A stretch of DNA of 42,570 nucleotides from a virus (lineage: Duplodnaviria; Heunggongvirae; Uroviricota; Caudoviricetes). The notes under the pieces are model-generated. The model was not told where the DNA came from, did no database searches, and saw nothing but the letters and a program-made list of their open reading frames with translations. The stretch spans positions 1-42,570 of IMG/VR virus record IMGVR_UViG_2687453563_000006. One strand, written 5' to 3'. The position numbers and the translations under genes are program-made. This document shows positions 25,218 to 34,230 of this stretch, piece by piece (position 1 is the first letter of the stretch; each line of letters starts with the position of its first letter).

Positions 25218-25498
25218 TAGTGCCTCAGATGATCAACCAGACGTGCAACGTTGCCTCTTACGGCCACCAGCACGGAAAGAAAAATAGTGTTCGCCACGAT
25301 AATGGGCCATGAGGAATGGGGATAAATCCCACAGAGATAGGCCAACGGAACAGCACTGTATGTAACAGTAATCAGCCAGGCTAAACGTGAAACCCAAGGA
25401 CGATGCCGCGAATCACCACGACGATAAAACATCAGAGTAATAACAACACAAGCACATAACAGCGCATTTATAGTTGCTGTCGGGTCATTTAGCTCCAC
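25217..25498 (-). CDS. Membrane protein (holin/antiholin-like)
   Basis: 93 aa, hydrophobic helices. Confidence 0.5.
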   Translation of the reverse strand: MELNDPTATINALLCACVVITLMFYRRGDSRHRPWVSRLAWLITVTYSAVPLAYLCGIYPHSSWPIIVANTIFLSVLVAVRGNVARLVDHLRH

Positions 25499-25871
25499 CT
25501 GAACCTCCCCGGCGCGTTATGAGCGCCACCAGCGAGCCGATATCCTGATTATTCAGGAACGTCAGGATTTTAACGGCTAAAGCAGAGACGATTACGGCAC
25601 CAATAGCATCCAGAGGTTTATCACTGTATCCGGTCAAGTTCGCCAGCTTGGAGCCAACCAACCCAGAGCAAAGAATCCCGGCAATATATGACACGATAAA
25701 ATATGCCAGTCGGCGCGATGCACTCAGATCTGCTGCTGTTGCTATGTAGAATACAGCCCCTGCAAATGCGCCAAATACAACGCCGTAATCAGTTCCGGTC
25801 AGCAGTCCATAAACACTGGCCCCCGTCAGGGCACCACCAGCCAGCCCAGTACCGGAAATCGGATCGGACAT
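25485..25871 (-). CDS. Putative holin
   Basis: 128 aa Gly/Ala-rich multi-TM protein at start of lysis cassette. Confidence 0.55.
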   Translation of the reverse strand: MSDPISGTGLAGGALTGASVYGLLTGTDYGVVFGAFAGAVFYIATAADLSASRRLAYFIVSYIAGILCSGLVGSKLANLTGYSDKPLDAIGAVIVSALAVKILTFLNNQDIGSLVALITRRGGSGGAK

Positions 25872-25950
25872 TTAGCCCCCTCTTAATTGCTGTTGGTCCT
25901 CTCAGATATGAGGGGAAGGGATCTTAATGACATTCTGTTTATTATTTCAG

Positions 25951-26208
25951 TCAAACACTACCCTGTTGATGATTTCTCAGAAGCGAACTTGACTCCCAAG
26001 GGAAACTCAACTTTCCGTTAAAACCACCAGCAGACATTCGTTCAATTTCCACAGAAATATCACTGAGCCGTTCTTCAAGCTCTGCTTTTTCTTTTACCAG
26101 ACGGTTATAGCGGCTTAGATGAAGCTTTTGCTGCTCCAGCCAGTCTTCAAGCTGTTCAACAGTCATACCAGGGTTAAAAAAATATGGCTGCTGCTTTTCG
26201 CCCTGCAT
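25951..26208 (-). CDS. Hypothetical protein, first gene of late operon (86 aa)
   Basis: ATG with ggagg SD just downstream of tR'; track ORF extends upstream through the terminator. Confidence 0.5.
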   Translation of the reverse strand: MQGEKQQPYFFNPGMTVEQLEDWLEQQKLHLSRYNRLVKEKAELEERLSDISVEIERMSAGGFNGKLSFPWESSSLLRNHQQGSV

Positions 26209-26221
26209 TATTGACCTCCAG

Positions 26222-26248
26222 AAAAGCAAAAACCCCGCCGAAGCGAGG
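26222..26248 (-). terminator. tR'-like intrinsic terminator of the late leader RNA
   Basis: CCUCGC-UUCG-GCGGGG hairpin plus UUUUUGCUUUU, about 110 nt downstream of Q. Confidence 0.7.
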
Positions 26249-26277
26249 TTTGTTATGATTTCGTTAACGGCAGACAT

Positions 26278-26358
26278 ACAAAGCCCATCGTTAGGAAAAT
26301 CCTAACCAGATTTTTTGAAAAATGCAAGAATCATGTCGCCATCTTCGGCGAAAATCAT
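26278..26358 (-). promoter_or_regulatory. pR'-like late promoter / qut region
   Basis: TTGCAT-17-TAGGAT candidate between Q stop and terminator. Confidence 0.4.
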
Positions 26359-27111
26359 TTATCTCGTCACTTTTCTTAATTGCGCCTCAGCATATGCTTC
26401 TTCCTGCCAGCACTTTGTCACCAGTTTATCAATGACATCTGCATATCCTTTGTACCACTGATAATCCGTCAGATCCGGTACCAGCTTCTGGACATGATGC
26501 CGCGCCAGTGTGGTTGGTAAACGGCTAAACCGGTTGCCATTGCAACGCCCACAAATCTTATAAACAGGCACACCATGAAGCCGGGTTCTTTTTTCATCCA
26601 GGACAATACCTTTACCCTTACACCCTCTGCACGCTGTGCTGACTTCTCCCTTACCATGGCAATGCTGACATAGTTCCTTCACCCACTCTTCCTTGATAAC
26701 AGATTCCCCGCTTCTGGAGTGTTTCACCACTTCGCGCAATACATTATGAAATCCAGTACCAGCACAATGCTCACAGCGAGCCTTACTTGCCGCAGACCTG
26801 GAATAATCAGCAAAGGCAAAATTCACAAGGTAATGGATGATCTGTAACCGGGTTTCTTCACTCAATTTGTTCAATGTCGGGTTATCCAGTGCCATCGCGT
26901 AATTGAGCAGACCTTCAATCGCAAACTGAGGATCCTGAACACCAACTTTTGCCAGAAATAAGGCAAACCCAAGCGGTGCTTTCGACTGCACCATCCCCTG
27001 CGCAGCCATCACATCCGTAATCGTTAAACCACTCGAGCCTGTCGCCGGTGCCTCATCGCTCAATTTGGGAGATTTTGGGGAGTAATATTTTGGTAAGGCT
27101 TCAAGGTTCAT
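26359..27111 (-). CDS. Late antiterminator Q-like protein
   Basis: 250 aa with four CxxC zinc-finger pairs; position before pR'/tR' and lysis. Confidence 0.65.
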   Translation of the reverse strand: MNLEALPKYYSPKSPKLSDEAPATGSSGLTITDVMAAQGMVQSKAPLGFALFLAKVGVQDPQFAIEGLLNYAMALDNPTLNKLSEETRLQIIHYLVNFAFADYSRSAASKARCEHCAGTGFHNVLREVVKHSRSGESVIKEEWVKELCQHCHGKGEVSTACRGCKGKGIVLDEKRTRLHGVPVYKICGRCNGNRFSRLPTTLARHHVQKLVPDLTDYQWYKGYADVIDKLVTKCWQEEAYAEAQLRKVTR

Positions 27112-27124
27112 GCTCGTTCTCCAC

Positions 27125-28120
27125 TTACGCCAGTACGCCTATTGCCAGCGCACGATCGATAAAACGAAATATCAGCTCCAACTGGGAGCCATACTTCTCT
27201 TCAAATGCCACGGTATCCGCATGCAGCTCGTCGTGATGCTTTCTGCACAAAGGCAACACAAAGAGGTCATGCGCTTTTGTACCCATTCCCCCCTGACCGT
27301 GGCCTATCAGGTGGTGGGGATCATCAGCGGGCTTTCCACAACATGCACACGGCTGTGTCTTAACCCAGCGCGTGTACTTTTCATTAACCCAGCGGCGACG
27401 TTTTGGGCGTAACATAAAAGACTCTGGCGACTCCGGATCCACTTTCAGCGCCAGCACCTTTTTCGCCTTATCCTGGATGATGCTGGTGGCAGGAACCGAA
27501 GGCACAAGGTCACTTTCCCGGGTGGCAGACGGCACAACAGGCTTCGGTAATCTCAGTGCCTTACGGGCTGCACTTTCCGGTAAGGCATCCGCCAGGTCAT
27601 TACGAACCAGCCACCAGCACAGTTCCGGCATTGTCACAACGTGACTATCATCAAAACCGAGATCCCGACGCACAACAGACAATACCCAGCGGGCACAGTT
27701 ATCCGTTGCCATTGATTCCAGCCGTTCCGTGAACTGATCGCGCAACTGGTTATCGCAGTGCCAGCACAGACGGATTGCGCCCGGCGCGTGCCGCATTGTG
27801 GTCATGTTCTCGCTGTGCCAGTCGGAATGAGGCCACTGACAGCCCTTTTCACGAAGTAACCAGCTTTCAAGACATTCCACGCCACCAGCACGACGGATCA
27901 CTGCCTCATTGCGGAACACGCCCCGAACGGCAGGATCATCCGCCAGCGGTTGTGATACCGCCGGAACGGCACCACTGGCAAAAGATGAATAACGTTCCGG
28001 CTCAGGCTCCAACAGGACACGCCCCTGCATAAACAGGGGCATCAGCTCTGAACCTGGCCTGAACAATACGATCCCCATACGCGGGGCAATTTCAGGAGTC
28101 AGTAGTGCTCTCACGGTCAC
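27125..28120 (-). CDS. DUF968-like protein
   Basis: C-terminal CACCGKPADDPHHL...PLCRKHHDELH motif. Confidence 0.6.
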   Translation of the reverse strand: MTVRALLTPEIAPRMGIVLFRPGSELMPLFMQGRVLLEPEPERYSSFASGAVPAVSQPLADDPAVRGVFRNEAVIRRAGGVECLESWLLREKGCQWPHSDWHSENMTTMRHAPGAIRLCWHCDNQLRDQFTERLESMATDNCARWVLSVVRRDLGFDDSHVVTMPELCWWLVRNDLADALPESAARKALRLPKPVVPSATRESDLVPSVPATSIIQDKAKKVLALKVDPESPESFMLRPKRRRWVNEKYTRWVKTQPCACCGKPADDPHHLIGHGQGGMGTKAHDLFVLPLCRKHHDELHADTVAFEEKYGSQLELIFRFIDRALAIGVLA

Positions 28121-28121
28121 C

Positions 28122-28931
28122 TCAATGAACGGTATCGAGCAGCTTTAACAGCTCAGGGAATCGGGATTCGAAGAAATGCGGCTGCGTCTCGCGCGGATTT
28201 GCGGGACTGGTGATGTTCTTGCCGAACATGCAGCCTTTCGCTGTCAGCGACCAGAATTTTTTGATGTTGTTAATCGCAGTGCGGCTGTATCGTTCACGTT
28301 GTTCAACGATCCCCAGCTTCGCCATCTGGTGATATGCCTGATTAGCTGTCAGGCGGATACCATACTGCTTCAGCAGTGCACTCAATGATAGCGTGGGGCG
28401 GCTTGAGCCATCAGGCGCGTCAGCAGGAGCATCAATGGCATAGCGCGGTGCCAGATTCGGTAAGCCAACAGCCTCCTGGAGTTTCTGACAGGCACCAAGC
28501 ACTGAAGAGTTAGACAGGTTTAACTCCCGGCGCATAAAGTCCAGCAGAATCACTCCAGCCTGCATCTTGTCAGCAGCCTGTCCGGATAATTTTTCCGGTG
28601 CGCTGGTTACCATGTCGAAAGTACGGATCACCTTCAGATGGAATGACGGGCTGATCCACATTGCATAGGCATACACCAGTTCTTTGCAGACATACGTCCC
28701 CTGGTTATTTCCGCCATTAATGACGCTAACTGGTTGATTTTGTTCCAGAGGCGGAATTCCACCCTCGGTGAAAAGTTGTTCAATCAATTCACAGGTTTGC
28801 TTATTGGAGAGCCAGTATTTCGGGCGGTTTTTTTGTTCTCCCCCGGCTGCCCTATGCAGATCGTTCAGGCTGTAACGACCATAAGCATCACGACGAACTT
28901 CAATACCATCAATGACCATCAGATTATTCAT
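28122..28931 (-). CDS. KilA-N domain protein (antirepressor-like)
   Basis: N-terminal IDGIEVRRDAYGRYSLNDLH. Confidence 0.6.
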   Translation of the reverse strand: MNNLMVIDGIEVRRDAYGRYSLNDLHRAAGGEQKNRPKYWLSNKQTCELIEQLFTEGGIPPLEQNQPVSVINGGNNQGTYVCKELVYAYAMWISPSFHLKVIRTFDMVTSAPEKLSGQAADKMQAGVILLDFMRRELNLSNSSVLGACQKLQEAVGLPNLAPRYAIDAPADAPDGSSRPTLSLSALLKQYGIRLTANQAYHQMAKLGIVEQRERYSRTAINNIKKFWSLTAKGCMFGKNITSPANPRETQPHFFESRFPELLKLLDTVH

Positions 28932-28950
28932 ACTTCGTTTCTCCTCTTAA

Positions 28951-29340
28951 TCAGGCGGCTGCACCCGCCGTTTTCTTGTACTTACTGATAGTGATCTCGA
29001 CCTTCCCTTTCGGGATAACTGGTCCCCACTCCACCAGCATTCTTTTCACCTGTCTGTCGTCTTCCCACACACCCGCGTGGGTCAGGGCGTCAAACAGCGC
29101 CTTGTTATAGTTGTCCAGATCGCGGATCCGGTTATCCGGAGGAAACAACACGATCTCCACTGAAGCAGGTGCCGACGTCGGTTTCGGCAGGCGACGTAAC
29201 TGCTCAACTATTGCTGCGCACGCCGCGCTCTGGAATTTGCGCCCCGCTGCGCTTATCAGACTCTTACCAGCAAACGCCCCTTTGTTGGGGTGTCGCCAGT
29301 ACGTGTTCACGCTGGGCGGGAAAGGCAAGATCAGCTTCAT
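28951..29340 (-). CDS. rusA: RusA Holliday-junction resolvase
   Basis: 129 aa with PPSVNxYW and acidic catalytic residues DLDN. Confidence 0.8.
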   Translation of the reverse strand: MKLILPFPPSVNTYWRHPNKGAFAGKSLISAAGRKFQSAACAAIVEQLRRLPKPTSAPASVEIVLFPPDNRIRDLDNYNKALFDALTHAGVWEDDRQVKRMLVEWGPVIPKGKVEITISKYKKTAGAAA

Positions 29341-29663
29341 ACTTTCAGGCCCCTCTCATGTAACCAGTGGGCTGCACGTAGCCTGGCGTTTTCCTCACCG
29401 GCAAGCAGTGCGCGGATAATCCCGACCGCCTCGCTGTCGTCGTCCTTCACCGCGGTATGAAGCGTTATCCCCCGGGCCACGCCACGCTTTATCGTGATGA
29501 CGCCTTTTTTCTCCAGTGCGCGAAGATGCTCCACCGCTGCATTCACTGAACGGTATCCCAGCATGGTTGCCACCTCCTGATTGGTTGGCGGAAAGCCACG
29601 CTCTTGCTGGTAAGAAATCAGCATATCCAGCACCTGCTGCTGGCATTGAGTTAACGTCGTCAT
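29337..29663 (-). CDS. LexA-type DNA-binding domain protein lacking peptidase domain
   Basis: 108 aa; QQQVLDMLISYQQERGFPPTNQEVATMLGYRSVNAAVEHLRALEKKGVI parallels LexA N-terminal wHTH. Confidence 0.6.
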   Translation of the reverse strand: MTTLTQCQQQVLDMLISYQQERGFPPTNQEVATMLGYRSVNAAVEHLRALEKKGVITIKRGVARGITLHTAVKDDDSEAVGIIRALLAGEENARLRAAHWLHERGLKV

Positions 29664-30313
29664 GCCGCCATCTCCCTGACAAGTTTTTCTGCCTGCTGGC
29701 GAACCTGCGCCAGAAACGCCTCACCACATGCCTCAAGTTCATCGCGCCCGATGTAGCTGATTGCCGGTCCCTTCCAGGTCTTGTCGAAAACAGCAATAGC
29801 ACCAGCGAAGAAAGCGCCTGTCGGCACCTGCTTCTCATCCTTCGGGATAAACCAGGCAGGCAGTTCAAAACCAATACGCCCGCGAATAAAAGCAATATGG
29901 TCCGCATCTTCCGGCCACCACACTTCGCTGGTGGCAGCTTTGATCAGGAAAACATAGCGCCCGCCCTTATCACGCATGGCACTGGCATGTTTCATGATGT
30001 AACGCATGCCGGTGATGTATTGCCCCTCATGCTGACTGGCGCGGCTGTATGGGGGATTACCAAAGGCAGCACCTTTAAGCTCCGCAAGACGTTCTGACCA
30101 GTCATGCGCCAGCGCGTTGTCTTCCGCCGTGTAATACGCGGCACATTTGGCGTTATCACCGTCAGTGAACAGATCCAGAACAAACGGACCAAACAAGGTG
30201 TTAATTCCCCAGAAAATGTTGTCCGGCGTGCGCCACTGATCGCCCACTTCCTTCAGTTCATGGGCTGGTTTGTTCCGCAGTTCTACCAGCGCCTGGCAAT
30301 ATTTATTACTCAT
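29660..30313 (-). CDS. Phage DNA N6-adenine methyltransferase (Dam family)
   Basis: 217 aa; NPPY-type motif GNPPYS. Confidence 0.75.
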   Translation of the reverse strand: MSNKYCQALVELRNKPAHELKEVGDQWRTPDNIFWGINTLFGPFVLDLFTDGDNAKCAAYYTAEDNALAHDWSERLAELKGAAFGNPPYSRASQHEGQYITGMRYIMKHASAMRDKGGRYVFLIKAATSEVWWPEDADHIAFIRGRIGFELPAWFIPKDEKQVPTGAFFAGAIAVFDKTWKGPAISYIGRDELEACGEAFLAQVRQQAEKLVREMAA

Positions 30314-30407
30314 TAAGCCCCCACGTAAAAAGCATCCGCAATGTCTCCGGAAGTACAGCCCGGATGGGCTTCAATGAATTTCTGAACGTCATTTAACAGA
30401 CTCATGA

Positions 30408-31400
30408 TCACCCCCTGAATCCTGCCGGGATCTGGCTGTAGTCCACGTTGTCGTAACTGGCTTTGAAGTACGGGTCTTCACGTTTTTCTGTGTGCGTGCT
30501 GACGGACGGCGATAAGCGCAGGGAAAGCTCATCCCATTTTTCCCGCAACTTCGACGGGCTGAGCACGTTACGGCACCAGAACGGATCGCGGCTGACGCGG
30601 CTGTACATCTCGCAGATTTGTTTGTGAGTACGACCATCCTGCACACACATCAGGCGAATTTCGTTTGCCCATGCTGTCCAGTTCGGTTCTTTGGGACGAA
30701 CCACCTCGCCGTCACATTCGGCAGCCTGCTCGTACAGGGCGATGATTTTTTTCCAGAGCCACTGTGCGCAGGTCAAATCATCCTGCGTCCCCCACTGGCG
30801 CTTTTTAGGGCTGAATACAACCGCATCAGGATGGCGAGTTAAAAACTCCTGTTCAGCCGTTTGCGTGTCCGGTTGCGAAGCGTCCGGACGAGAAGAGGTT
30901 TTATTCTCTGTAGTAATCTCTGTTGTATTCTCTGTAAGATCATTGGGCCATTTTGACCCGATGACAGCGTGTCGTTTTGAACCAATGGATCGTGTCATTT
31001 TGCGCCCATCCATCAGGTCACTTTGACACGATGGAGAAGTGCATTTTGACCTGATGGATTCGTTCACTTTGACCTCTTCTAAAAGCTCACTTTCATAGTT
31101 GATCGTGTAGAAGTTGGTCATGTCACGCTTCGATTTATTGAGTTGCTCGCGACGCAAAACCCCAAGTGATTTCAGGCTTGCAAATGTGCGTTTCAGAGTG
31201 GACTCTGACCAGAACGGAAACTGCTCCAGCCACTGTTCTGTCGTGTTATAAACCCAGCGAATTCCGCCATGCTCAGTGCCTGAATTCGTTTCATTCAGCC
31301 AGTAATGAAGCTGCTGCAACACAATTGCCTCATTCAGACCAATACGGCATGCAAGATCACGATTTATCACAATGGGCTGGGATGTCATTAACAGGCTCAT
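30408..31400 (-). CDS. Replication initiation protein (O-like; contains ori iterons)
   Basis: 330 aa, N-terminal HTH-like region; internal iteron array. Confidence 0.65.
   Translation of the reverse strand: MSLLMTSQPIVINRDLACRIGLNEAIVLQQLHYWLNETNSGTEHGGIRWVYNTTEQWLEQFPFWSESTLKRTFASLKSLGVLRREQLNKSKRDMTNFYTINYESELLEEVKVNESIRSKCTSPSCQSDLMDGRKMTRSIGSKRHAVIGSKWPNDLTENTTEITTENKTSSRPDASQPDTQTAEQEFLTRHPDAVVFSPKKRQWGTQDDLTCAQWLWKKIIALYEQAAECDGEVVRPKEPNWTAWANEIRLMCVQDGRTHKQICEMYSRVSRDPFWCRNVLSPSKLREKWDELSLRLSPSVSTHTEKREDPYFKASYDNVDYSQIPAGFRG
30947..31083. repeat. Origin iterons inside replication gene (about 6 x ~20 bp, consensus tCAyTTTGACCnGATGGA)
   Basis: Direct repeats ccattttgacccgatgaca / tcgttttgaaccaatggatc / tcactttgacacgatggag / gcattttgacctgatggatt / tcactttgacc, with tctctgt triplets just upstream. 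Confidence 0.7.
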
Positions 31401-31748
31401 GACCGACCTCTATTTCCCTGAATTTACGACGAAACTGTTCGAGCGGACTGAAGCATTCATGTTCATAGCCTTCACGGAGGTAGATAACCCGTTGTGTTTC
31501 CGGCTCCCAACGAATGACTCTGACGGGCACTCCGTAGTGATCTTTGAACCAGCGGTTAACTTGTCGCAAAGGACTGTCTCCTTCTGCCGGTTGAAATCAC
31601 CCACAGCCCACTCTGCAAAGCTGTGGGTTACAATTTCCCTGTCACCTGGTACATTCACTGCATAGCAATACTCCACCTTCGCTTTTCCACCCGGTACAGG
31701 AAGCGCAATCAGTTGCGAGCGACGGTAGTGTGTTGTTAAACTGTTCAT
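31357..31748 (-). CDS. Hypothetical early protein split across two frames (possible frameshift)
   Basis: ORFs 31410..31748 and 31357..31569 overlap; protein-like sequence switches frame near 31570-31600; downstream ORF has only a TTG start. Confidence 0.4.
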
Positions 31749-32329
31749 GCGTTAGTTTCTCCACAACCAGAAGCAATCGACGCCACGACGCCCGGAGCTG
31801 CACACTCGCGGGCGTTACTCTTTTCCGGTGCACAAAAAACACGAAATAACAGTGTTAAATGCTCCTGCCACTTCGCCATTACTTGGTAGCTGTTCTCTTC
31901 GATTTGCTCACGCTCAGCCTGGTCAATAACTCCATCAGCAGTTGCCTTGCGTAAGTACTGGGAATGCTTGCCAATCCATTCTATTGACTCCATCAGCCGC
32001 TGATTAATGTCACCATTGTCAATGTCATCAATGACCACCAGCGGCACAAACACCCCATTACTACGACGGGCTATTGCATCTGTTACATGCCTGGTACCAC
32101 TGGCATCCTGTAAAACCATGGCCCACTCAAGTGGAAAAATTTGATCCCCACCGCTACGCAGTCTGTTATGCAATTGATCTTTTGCTGGGGTGATATCATC
32201 AGATTTATACAAACCAAGAATTTCTGCTGCTTCCTCATAGCCATGAGGTAAATCAGCAATCGTTCTTCGTATTGCTGCCACCAGCCATGCTGGTTGTTTA
32301 TCAACTTTCCATTCAGGTTCTTTACCCAC
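31745..32329 (-). CDS. YdaT/CII-like early regulatory protein
   Basis: 194 aa immediately downstream of YdaS-like Cro; GTG start. Confidence 0.45.
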
Positions 32330-32356
32330 GGTTAATTCCTCATTTCTGTGGTGTTT

Positions 32357-32554
32357 TTATGCCGCAGCACTGTTAGTCTTTTGATATAAAGACACGTCAA
32401 CTTTCAGTTTCCCGTTAGTAATTTTTTCTAACTGGTACGCTCGGCCTTCAGGAATAATCTCAGGCCACTCTGAAACAGACGGATGCTTAATACCTAGGGC
32501 TTCGGCGGTTTTACAAACTCCGCCGAAATAATTAATCACGTCGGATTTCCGCAT
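32357..32554 (-). CDS. Cro-like repressor (YdaS family)
   Basis: 65 aa HTH protein divergent from cI. Confidence 0.7.
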   Translation of the reverse strand: MRKSDVINYFGGVCKTAEALGIKHPSVSEWPEIIPEGRAYQLEKITNGKLKVDVSLYQKTNSAAA

Positions 32555-32649
32555 TTCTGTCTCCCGTTAAATTACGTTAAGCAGAAATGTAGGATATCCA
32601 ACATGCCAATGTCAAGAATCCTACATGGACATGTGGTAGGATTGCCTAC
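32555..32649. promoter_or_regulatory. OR operator / PR-PRM region
   Basis: ATGTAGGATATCCAACAT site plus TCCTAC/GTAGGA half-site repeats; TTGACA -35 for minus-strand PR. Confidence 0.7.
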
Positions 32650-33303
32650 ATGATGAACATGAGTGATCGTATTCGCCAAAGGCGAAAAGAACTGAACCTG
32701 ACACAACAAGCACTGGCTGATTTGACTGGTGTGAACCGTGTCACGGTTACTGGATGGGAAAAGGACGACTACCAACCAAATGGAGCCAACCTTCAAGCCC
32801 TAGCCAACGCACTTAAATGCGATCCTCTGTGGCTTGTTAGCGGAAAAGGCTCGCCTGAACCAAAGATAAATCTAAAACCTGAAATATTCGCAGTTAAAAA
32901 AGTCCCCCTCATCTCGTGGGTTCAGGCGGGTTCATGGACAATGACGGAGCCTGGTGTCAGGAAAGAAGATGCTGAAGAGTGGGTTTATACTACCGCCCTT
33001 GTATCAGAAATGGCATTTGCACTACGGGTCCGTGGTGATTCAATGACCAATCCCCTCGGCTCACCATCGATACCAGAAGGTTCTATCGTTATCGTAGAGC
33101 CAGATATTATTGATACAGAGTGTATTAACGGAAAAATCGTTGTTGCCCATATCAATGGTGGGCAAGAAGCGACACTCAAAAAATTTGTTGAGGACTGGCC
33201 GAACAGGTATCTCGTCCCACTAAATCCTAACTATAAAACTATTGAATGCGGTGAGAACTGCAGAATAGTTGGTCTTGTCAAACAAGTAATAATGGATTTT
33301 TGA
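32650..33303 (+). CDS. CI-like repressor (HTH plus S24 LexA-like peptidase)
   Basis: N-terminal HTH (LTQQALADLTGVNRVTVTGWE), C-terminal RVRGDSM...K motif. Confidence 0.9.
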   Translation: MMNMSDRIRQRRKELNLTQQALADLTGVNRVTVTGWEKDDYQPNGANLQALANALKCDPLWLVSGKGSPEPKINLKPEIFAVKKVPLISWVQAGSWTMTEPGVRKEDAEEWVYTTALVSEMAFALRVRGDSMTNPLGSPSIPEGSIVIVEPDIIDTECINGKIVVAHINGGQEATLKKFVEDWPNRYLVPLNPNYKTIECGENCRIVGLVKQVIMDF

Positions 33304-33323
33304 CACATCTTCCTCACTATCGC

Positions 33324-33350
33324 AAAACCGGGGTATCCCCGGTTTTTTTA
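33324..33350 (+). terminator. Intrinsic terminator after cI
   Basis: AAAACCGGGGTATCCCCGGTTTTTTT perfect hairpin plus T7. Confidence 0.8.
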
Positions 33351-33365
33351 TGAGCCTATCTTTTT

Positions 33366-33420
33366 ATGTAGGATAACCAACATAAACTCTTGACACTCAC
33401 ATGTTGGATATCCTACATTT
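33366..33420 (+). promoter_or_regulatory. OL operators / PL promoter
   Basis: Two copies of the OR site (atgtaggataaccaacat, atgttggatatcctacat) around TTGACA -35. Confidence 0.7.
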
Positions 33421-33424
33421 GTTT

Positions 33425-33444
33425 TTAGAGTTGTGGTGAATGCG
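33425..33444 (+). repeat. 20 bp direct repeat copy A (ttagagttgtggtgaatgcg), followed by hairpin
   Basis: 19/20 identical to copy B at 34080; lies at the predicted 5' end of the PL transcript. Confidence 0.6.
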
Positions 33445-33536
33445 CAGGCTGATGCGCGAAAGACATTGCAGCTATTGCGGAAAAGAGCTGTTCGGCGGGG
33501 CAATTAAACGCCCGTATCTGGAGGTTAAAGAACAAA

Positions 33537-33812
33537 ATGAAAGTCCAGATTTTAAACAATAGTGGTGAAGTCGTTTGGTCATACGACATAGCCGCTCCTG
33601 TAGATCAGAGCGGCGATAGCTGGACCAATGGGAAACATCAGATTATGGCTGGAGTTGTATTCTCTTTACGCCGTGCTTTGGAACAGGCTGAAGTATTTCC
33701 ATCAGACCCTGAATGGAAATGGCCTTTTTCTATTTGTCCAAATTCGGAGAGTACATTTCAGAAAATTGGTCAGAAAGTCGCACTCGAAGAGCATCAGCCA
33801 ACTGTTTCCTGA
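33537..33812 (+). CDS. Hypothetical early protein (first PL gene)
   Basis: 91 aa, strong ggagg SD. Confidence 0.55.
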   Translation: MKVQILNNSGEVVWSYDIAAPVDQSGDSWTNGKHQIMAGVVFSLRRALEQAEVFPSDPEWKWPFSICPNSESTFQKIGQKVALEEHQPTVS

Positions 33813-33975
33813 TTTTTTCAGGTAGCTCGTCGGCATCGCAGAAACAACAACGCTCGATCATGTTGAAAGCCGATTCGTAGAACTGTTTCTGCTGAGTGTC
33901 GCTGAGACAGGAAAAGAGCGACGTTACGATGATTTTATTAATTGCATTATCAAGTTCTTTTTCATCAAAAGTCAT
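33730..33975 (-). CDS. Hypothetical Cys-containing protein, antisense to PL operon
   Basis: 81 aa with aagga SD; 3' end overlaps the convergent 33537..33812 gene by 83 nt. Confidence 0.45.
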   Translation of the reverse strand: MTFDEKELDNAINKIIVTSLFSCLSDTQQKQFYESAFNMIERCCFCDADELPEKIRKQLADALRVRLSDQFSEMYSPNLDK

Positions 33976-34079
33976 TTGATTTTCCTTTTATGTATACGGA
34001 CTTAAAAGGATACCACCGAGCCTGAAGTGGTGAAAAGACAGGCACATAACAGCTAAGTATTTTCAACCAGAGAGAATCC

Positions 34080-34099
34080 TTAGCGTTGTGGTGAATGCG
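34080..34099 (+). repeat. 20 bp direct repeat copy B (ttagcgttgtggtgaatgcg)
   Basis: See copy A. Confidence 0.6.
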
Positions 34100-34230
34100 G
34101 CTCAGCGCACGCGGGTTAAGGTTGAGGCTGACAGTCGACCTTCTGTGGATACCCACCCGCCTGGTGTGCAACCTTCGCCAGGCACCGGGAGGCACCCGGC
34201 ACCACAACTTTATGCTGTGTGTAGTCCTGG

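Follow-up and report, generated by a model that had tools for sequence, protein, structure and literature searches.

A stand-alone LexA-type DNA-binding protein in the early operon of an SfV-like lambdoid prophage, a candidate RecA-insensitive repressor

Phages can carry the DNA-binding domain of LexA as a protein of its own. The sole characterised case is gp6 from GIL01, a tectivirus of Bacillus thuringiensis. This truncated LexA homologue is encoded by an early gene, is made after SOS induction, binds the sequence GaCACAC/GTGTGaC at -43.5, where it covers the -35 element, and acts as an activator of the late promoter (PMC6182141). Other phage proteins damp the SOS response or block rival prophages, such as gp7 from GIL01 and AriS from Listeria. 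Together with Cro from phage phi1720a-02, to which the interference of this phage with a rival prophage has been assigned, they keep LexA-controlled or rival-prophage promoters shut during induction: gp7 by binding LexA, AriS by other routes, and Cro by cross-binding. None of the three is a LexA-derived DNA-binding domain. The protein described here joins the phage stand-alone LexA DNA-binding domains, and is tentatively proposed to keep promoters of the same kind shut. It is encoded by an SfV-like lambdoid prophage, in a window (the whole stretch of DNA that was analysed) of 42,570 nucleotides, positions 1 to 42,570 of the IMG/VR record IMGVR_UViG_2687453563_000006. Phage phi1720a-02 carries the gene as well.

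The gene for this LexA-like protein (29337..29663, minus strand) encodes 108 amino acids (12 kDa) and lies directly downstream of a gene for a Dam-family methyltransferase. The first-pass annotation had singled out these two open reading frames (ORFs); both are present on the minus strand and are far beyond what chance would give. The resemblance that it had seen to the winged helix-turn-helix of LexA is borne out by profile, sequence, and structure searches. The LexA_DNA_bind profile PF01726 is matched with E=2.6e-19 and 69.2 bits (cut-off 23.7), and all of its 65 positions are aligned, to residues 1-65. The only other winged-helix matches, HTH_Crp_2 and Rrf2, are both under their cut-offs, and the profile search does not place the protein in an unrelated winged-helix family. 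In a phmmer search against the sequences of the Protein Data Bank (PDB), E. coli LexA ranks first (1lea/3jso, E ~1e-15), and the alignment over residues 2-70 is free of gaps, with 34 of the 69 positions identical (49%). The AlphaFold2 (AF2) model, for which an alignment of 40 family sequences was the input, reaches a predicted local distance difference test (pLDDT) score of 83.8, compared to 57.9 in an alignment-free run, and contains helices at residues 6-22, 28-35, and 40-52, and strands at 56-58 and 66-68. The top Foldseek matches of this model are all LexA, the first being the LexA-DNA complex 3jso_A, with a root-mean-square deviation of 0.9 A over 67 columns and 51% identity. The winged helix-turn-helix domain, delimited by the AF2 secondary structure and the ungapped alignment to LexA residues 2-70, takes up residues 1-68 (29460..29663, minus strand) and has the same fold as the N-terminal domain of E. 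coli LexA (1lea, 3jso), at 49-51% identity. Its recognition helix, located by alignment to the LexA contact residues, corresponds to residues 40-52 (29508..29546, minus strand), with S39 just before it.

Contrary to LexA, the protein lacks the S24 domain, the Ser119/Lys156 dyad, and the LexA dimer interface; it carries instead an extra hairpin, and it is phage-encoded, in a lytic early operon. The Pfam profile search gave no match to Peptidase_S24 (PF00717) in the protein, and the chain ends at residue 108, too short to leave space for such a domain. Since the S24 autocleavage domain is missing, the protein is incapable of self-cleavage, in agreement with the first-pass annotation. The LexA equivalog model TIGR00498 scores 70.3 bits, under its cut-off of 110.95, and is covered at positions 1-91 of 203, which leaves the protein outside the equivalog. 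The match to phrog_362, on the other hand, is full-length (E=2.6e-59, residues 1-108 against profile positions 1-106 of 106), and PHROG 362, SfV orf42, and cdtI orf48 belong to the same family, differing in annotation labels only. PADLOC gave the protein no defence-system assignment.

Beyond the winged helix and a short linker of low confidence, the AF2 model shows two helices, at residues 75-88 and 93-103, forming a C-terminal hairpin (residues 75-103, 29355..29441, minus strand) without counterpart in LexA. The block-mean pLDDT is 87-89 for residues 81-100. Conservation supports this module as well: across the 40 family members A97 and L101 do not vary and A79 and A93 hardly do, and the hairpin is kept down to 40% identity in eight or more genera. 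A profile built from the tail only found no homologue among the PDB sequences at E<=10, LexA included. The HMMER alignment extension pairs the tail motif LLAGE with VAAGE of LexA, and AF2 predicts a helix at LLAGE; a descent of the tail from the cleavage-site region of LexA was considered and gains no support from the tail-only profile, which misses LexA at this threshold. The hairpin is regarded as a putative dimerisation or interaction module and, since two helices have no core of their own, it may reasonably be supposed to dimerise as a four-helix bundle.

The helix-3 residues with which LexA contacts DNA are S39, N41, A42, E44, and E45 (PMC3091678). The LexA-like protein holds S39, N41, A42, V44, and E45 at these positions, that is, four of the five contacts are kept and E44 is replaced by V. 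In addition to S39, N41, A42, and E45, it has K53, R64, G65, and I66 in common with E. coli LexA. Since S39, N41, K53, R64, G65, and I66 are invariant in all 40 family members, DNA binding as such is very likely, as far as conservation can tell.

The gene belongs to the early-right operon, which starts from a PR-like promoter (TTGACA-18-TACATT, 32586..32615, minus strand; 10 of 12 matches in a consensus scan) and continues with cro, cII, the gene for the replication protein, a 30-amino-acid ORF, dam, the LexA-like gene, rusA, kilA-N, DUF968, and Q. The Q antiterminator gene (26359..27111, minus strand; PF03589, E=2.2e-54) is the last of the operon, and a terminator-like hairpin and then the holin gene are found 3' of it. 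Inside the operon the genes follow one another closely, and a search of the operon strand for terminator-like hairpins gave no strong one, only weak consensus matches. The repressor gene cI (32650-33303, plus strand) encodes a protein with HTH_3 and S24 (PF00717) domains according to Pfam.

Immediately upstream of the LexA-like gene, dam (29660..30313, minus strand) encodes a phage N6-adenine DNA methyltransferase of 217 amino acids. Its membership in the Dam family, also proposed in the first-pass annotation, is supported by Pfam, NCBIfam, and PHROG, with matches above the cut-offs to PF05869 (E=9.7e-46, 156 bits, cut-off 28.1) and TIGR01712, phage_N6A_met (255.6 bits, cut-off 97.05). The TGA stop of dam (29662-29660) and the ATG of the LexA-like gene (29663-29661) share the sequence ATGA (29660..29663, minus strand), and a GGGAGA Shine-Dalgarno sequence (29671..29676, minus strand) lies within dam, 7 nucleotides before this ATG, an arrangement that fits translational coupling of the LexA-like gene to dam. 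At the other end, the stop codon of the LexA-like gene (29339-29337) overlaps the ATG (29340-29338) of the gene for the Holliday-junction resolvase RusA (28951..29340, minus strand; PF05866, E=1.3e-14) in another ATGA, at 29337-29340. The overlap with dam had thus been noticed correctly but in the wrong direction: it is the stop of dam that overlaps the start of the LexA-like gene, and the stop of the latter meets rusA.

The explanation that we favour, tentatively and short of calling it probable, is that of a RecA-insensitive LexA-like repressor, dimerised by its hairpin, which would act on CTGT-type operators once host LexA is gone. The protein would be a phage derivative of the LexA N-terminal domain, consisting of a winged helix and a hairpin. 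The S24/dimerisation domain, the handle of activated RecA (RecA*) on LexA, is missing, and RecA* would thus be unable to remove the repressor. Transcription would take place within the early-right operon, and translation would be coupled to the upstream gene. Because of this operon position, the protein would be produced only after cleavage of the S24-type CI, while host LexA is being destroyed. It would then dimerise via the hairpin and, judging from the four of five contact residues retained, may bind to CTGT-type LexA-like operators, and LexA-controlled promoters would be silenced again during lytic growth. The candidate targets include host SOS genes, prophage genes with an SOS box, such as dinI, and the antirepressors that LexA controls in rival prophages.

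In the window, two canonical SOS boxes, CTGTTTATCCATACAG and CTGTATACAAACACAG, are located at 3-18 and 31-46 (3..46, plus strand). The boxes that the first-pass annotation had placed at 1-48 are therefore real, and the gene behind them is a dinI-like ORF truncated by IS1. An exact-site search shows that they are the only two CTGT-N8-ACAG sites of the window, against 0.48 expected by chance, which makes them the sole candidate targets within it. When CTGT-Nk-ACAG was scanned over the window at spacings of 0 to 20, no enrichment was found except for these two N8 boxes. In phage cdtI the same double box precedes an intact dinI (L178, 26458-26765). The dinI-like ORF of the window starts with an ATG at 62 (MRIEICIAKEK...) and is cut by IS1 after about 11 codons; the IS1 end starts near 95, and the IS1 transposase ORF is found at 112-615. 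Sites with one mismatch from the SOS box number 23 in the window, for 13.7 expected. One of them, CTGAAATAATAAACAG (25935-25950, minus strand), overlaps a promoter-like -10 element about 60 nucleotides upstream of the holin gene; it was dropped as a target, the identical sequence occurring in only 6 of 89 related loci.

A link to the SOS circuit is also seen in a sister clade of the LexA-domain family, whose members are 118-135 amino acids long, have an N-terminal extension, and are encoded in a unit made up of orf80, the LexA-like gene, and orf67. In all four lineages examined (five loci: L002 3385-4593, L169 3560-4608, L175 3561-4357, L176 2511-4599, and L177 3560-4608), an SOS box lies about 140-640 nucleotides upstream of the orf80/LexA-like unit. 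The box is canonical in a Klebsiella locus (TACTGTTTATTTATACAGTA, before dinI), in two Enterobacter loci (CTGTACATTCATACAG), and in a Salmonella-labelled genome (TACTGTTTATATATACAGTG), and has one mismatch in the metagenome contig L176, where it precedes a phage recA homologue. The arms of these boxes are conserved and the spacers differ. No homologues of orf80 or orf67 are found in the window. We infer from these arrangements that in both clades the protein would be made under DNA damage, via cleavage of CI in one case and of LexA in the other. The boxes and the DinI and RecA neighbours of the sister clade lend circumstantial weight to the idea that the protein acts in the SOS circuit.

Further SOS boxes were observed in related phages. 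In SfV (L179, 34170-34189), in cdtI (L178, 44083-44102), and in 22 of 80 IMG/VR loci, the interval from Q to the holin gene contains a gene for an N6_N4-type DNA methyltransferase, missing from the window, whose codons 3-9 coincide with a near-perfect box, TACTGTAAAAATAAACAGTG. In 20 IMG/VR loci (among L089-L168; e.g., L092, 546-565), a cI-like repressor gene contains a perfect box in the part that encodes the linker following the helix-turn-helix. Its commonest form on the coding strand, TACTGTATATAAAAACAGTA, which we take to be identical to the umuDC box, does not occur in the cI of the window. Around the latter gene, palindromes of the type ATGTAGGATATCCAACAT are repeated on both sides (32587-32626 and 33363-33421) and flank the PR-like promoter; they are likely the OR and OL operators of the CI/Cro switch, unrelated to LexA boxes.

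The family is already annotated and extremely common. Fifty deposited phage records, including SfII, cdtI, and Stx2a/Stx2c phages, share the dam/LexA-like/rusA block at 95-99% identity, and a tblastn search with the LexA-like protein additionally finds SfV and mEp460. The protein is 100% identical in cdtI, PhiR29, and PhiR40, and corresponds to SfV orf42 and cdtI orf48. Its gene is present in 2232 of 5426 complete E. coli genomes (41%), with up to four copies each. Relatives at 40-65% identity with the same hairpin are found in Citrobacter, Salmonella, Cronobacter, Klebsiella, Enterobacter, Kosakonia, Atlantibacter, and Hafnia, and a scan of genome contigs with the family alignment returned nearly only genuine lexA genes of other Gammaproteobacteria, the Atlantibacter locus L009 being the sole family member. 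NCBI uses the label "LexA family transcriptional regulator", with clusters of 2527, 782, and 374 sequences. PHROG 362 is labelled "transcriptional repressor", and the names "SOS-response repressor and protease LexA" and "RecA-mediated autopeptidases" are also in use; some of these labels are wrong, as the protein has no protease domain. A literature search found no functional study of the gene; its sole trace is a survey of Stx phages, which lists it as "pham 237, pfam01726". The 50%-identity representative library also holds proteins with tandem LexA-type DNA-binding domains and no S24 domain (P0128, P0135, P0141, and others), which are an alternative route to a two-headed LexA-like binder.

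Like gp6, the protein is a stand-alone LexA DNA-binding domain encoded in the early region of a temperate phage. Unlike gp6, which has merely a short wing extension, it has a conserved hairpin and an enterobacterial lambdoid setting. The tblastn search with the LexA-like protein (50,697 phage records, E<=1e-5) returned enterobacterial names only and no Bacillus phages, gp6 itself not having been aligned directly. Because each of the two proteins has its nearest LexA in its own host group, gp6 and the enterobacterial family are probably independent captures.

Several observations weigh against SOS boxes as the operators of the protein. Both boxes of the window front a gene disrupted by IS1, one of the five DNA contacts is changed by the replacement of E44 by V, and the dimerisation domain of LexA is missing; another dimer interface could alter the spacing of the half-sites. 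Furthermore, positions 42-45, which read AAVE in the window, read AAAE, AATD, SVFE, AVLL, TVFI, and AALT in other clades, whereas host LexA is essentially invariant among enterobacteria, a variation that speaks against a family-wide commitment to the SOS box. There is also the precedent of gp6, which is 44% identical to its host LexA and yet does not act on the LexA box (PMC6182141). The behaviour of gp6, the differences between clades at the specificity positions, and the E44V replacement of the window clade all speak for the main rival explanation, in which the protein is a phage-specific regulator with a diverged operator of its own, activating or repressing, like gp6, a phage promoter and not SOS boxes, its LexA-derived domain having drifted to a phage site. 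Against this reading, a palindrome search over 25400-34200 returned only the CI/Cro operators, with no other conserved palindrome in the early region, no gp6-type palindrome was seen near Q or near the late region of the window, and CTGT-Nk-ACAG is not enriched at spacings other than that of the SOS box. Besides, the late genes are already served by the Q antiterminator, and the LexA-like gene lacks a private promoter on which autoregulation could act. We thus consider a private operator a serious possibility, albeit a doubtful one, and count the lack of palindromic candidates besides the CI operators in the early region in favour of the RecA-insensitive repressor.

The neighbouring genes suggest other roles. 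In Stx phages, the winged-helix protein PNB-2 and an MT-A70 methyltransferase form a holoenzyme, a precedent for a winged-helix partner of a phage methyltransferase, and the LexA-like protein might similarly assist or target the methyltransferase encoded upstream, as one of its subunits, or control it. The overlap between the stop of dam and the LexA-like start fits this idea, as does the presence of a methyltransferase directly upstream in E. coli, Cronobacter, and Atlantibacter (PF05869 Dam), Salmonella and one unassigned contig (PF00145, a C5 methyltransferase), and Kosakonia (PF02086, D12). However, these three methyltransferase families are unrelated, which makes a conserved physical complex unlikely and is better explained by the swapping of cassettes at one conserved site. 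Of 80 near-identical IMG/VR loci, 58 have Dam directly upstream and 22 lack it; the slot is occupied by PerC/YfdN in some annotated E. coli genomes, by PerC in Citrobacter, and by a small ORF of unknown function in Klebsiella and Enterobacter, whose relatives have no methyltransferase there. Conversely, the Dam family of the window is found in 262 phage records (Chi-like and others), most of which list no LexA-like neighbour. The pairing is therefore frequent but not obligatory, contrary to the M.EcoPA8orf6770P-PNB-2 two-gene system; these co-occurrence counts led us to reject a Dam-dependent two-part system, dam adjacency is a frequent shared position in the nin-like region, and a methyltransferase partner of any kind seems quite unlikely. 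No better placed is a protein-protein or DNA-structure factor tied to RusA or to the RecA/LexA machinery, such as a modulator of junction resolution or a decoy. It is true that all 80 close loci, and most other lineages, have rusA immediately downstream with overlapping codons, and that dinI or recA homologues adjoin the sister-clade gene; but the Klebsiella loci lack RusA, in Cronobacter and Enterobacter it is not adjacent to the LexA-like gene, conservation within the protein is highest at the winged-helix residues that contact DNA, and the tail-only profile matches neither the LexA cleavage-site region nor anything else. A functionless, decaying remnant of a captured lexA, which the truncated look of the protein and its partial, sub-cut-off TIGR00498 match could suggest, is scarcely credible and already close to refuted. 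The 80 loci hold 51 distinct alleles, every one of them intact, and the ratio of nonsynonymous to synonymous polymorphism (pN/pS) is 0.054, a value biased low by the choice of these loci by protein identity; purifying selection on the gene is apparent. The hairpin is moreover retained across its eight or more genera, and 41% of complete E. coli genomes carry the gene.

Some additional features were observed around the dam slot. The gene upstream (L001, L006, L170, L173, L174) shows a stop/start overlap with the LexA-like gene when it encodes PF05869, PF00145, or PerC, and a gap of 9 nucleotides in Kosakonia (PF02086). Between the replication gene and dam in the window, the 30-amino-acid ORF MSLLNDVQKFIEAHPGCTSGDIADAFYVGA (30313-30405) has its ATG 2 nucleotides past the stop of the preceding gene and its own stop overlapping the ATG of dam, and was assigned to no family. 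RefSeq phage records name the Dam protein of the window "phosphoadenosine phosphosulfate reductase". Since this protein matches just positions 283-492 of the 495-position phrog_33262, the Dam part of a fusion family, the reductase name is a transfer error.

The SOS response controls mutagenesis, persistence, the induction of Shiga-toxin phages, and competition between prophages. If the LexA-like protein binds SOS boxes, a sizeable proportion of E. coli, Shigella, Salmonella, and Klebsiella strains carry an uncleavable substitute for LexA, and the SOS response would be altered in shape when it is expressed on prophage induction. At its widest, the proposal is that about 40% of E. coli genomes hold, on lambdoid or SfV-like prophages, a RecA-proof LexA surrogate that re-occupies SOS boxes after induction or, in the sister clade, after an SOS-boxed promoter has fired, closing the host SOS regulon and blocking the LexA-dependent antirepressors, colicins, and toxins of competitors. 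In this full form the proposal is unlikely but, if true, it would represent a new, DNA-level route by which phages take over the SOS switch. If the protein acts instead on an operator of its own, it would be the second independent case, after gp6 from GIL01, of a phage retargeting a captured host LexA DNA-binding domain.

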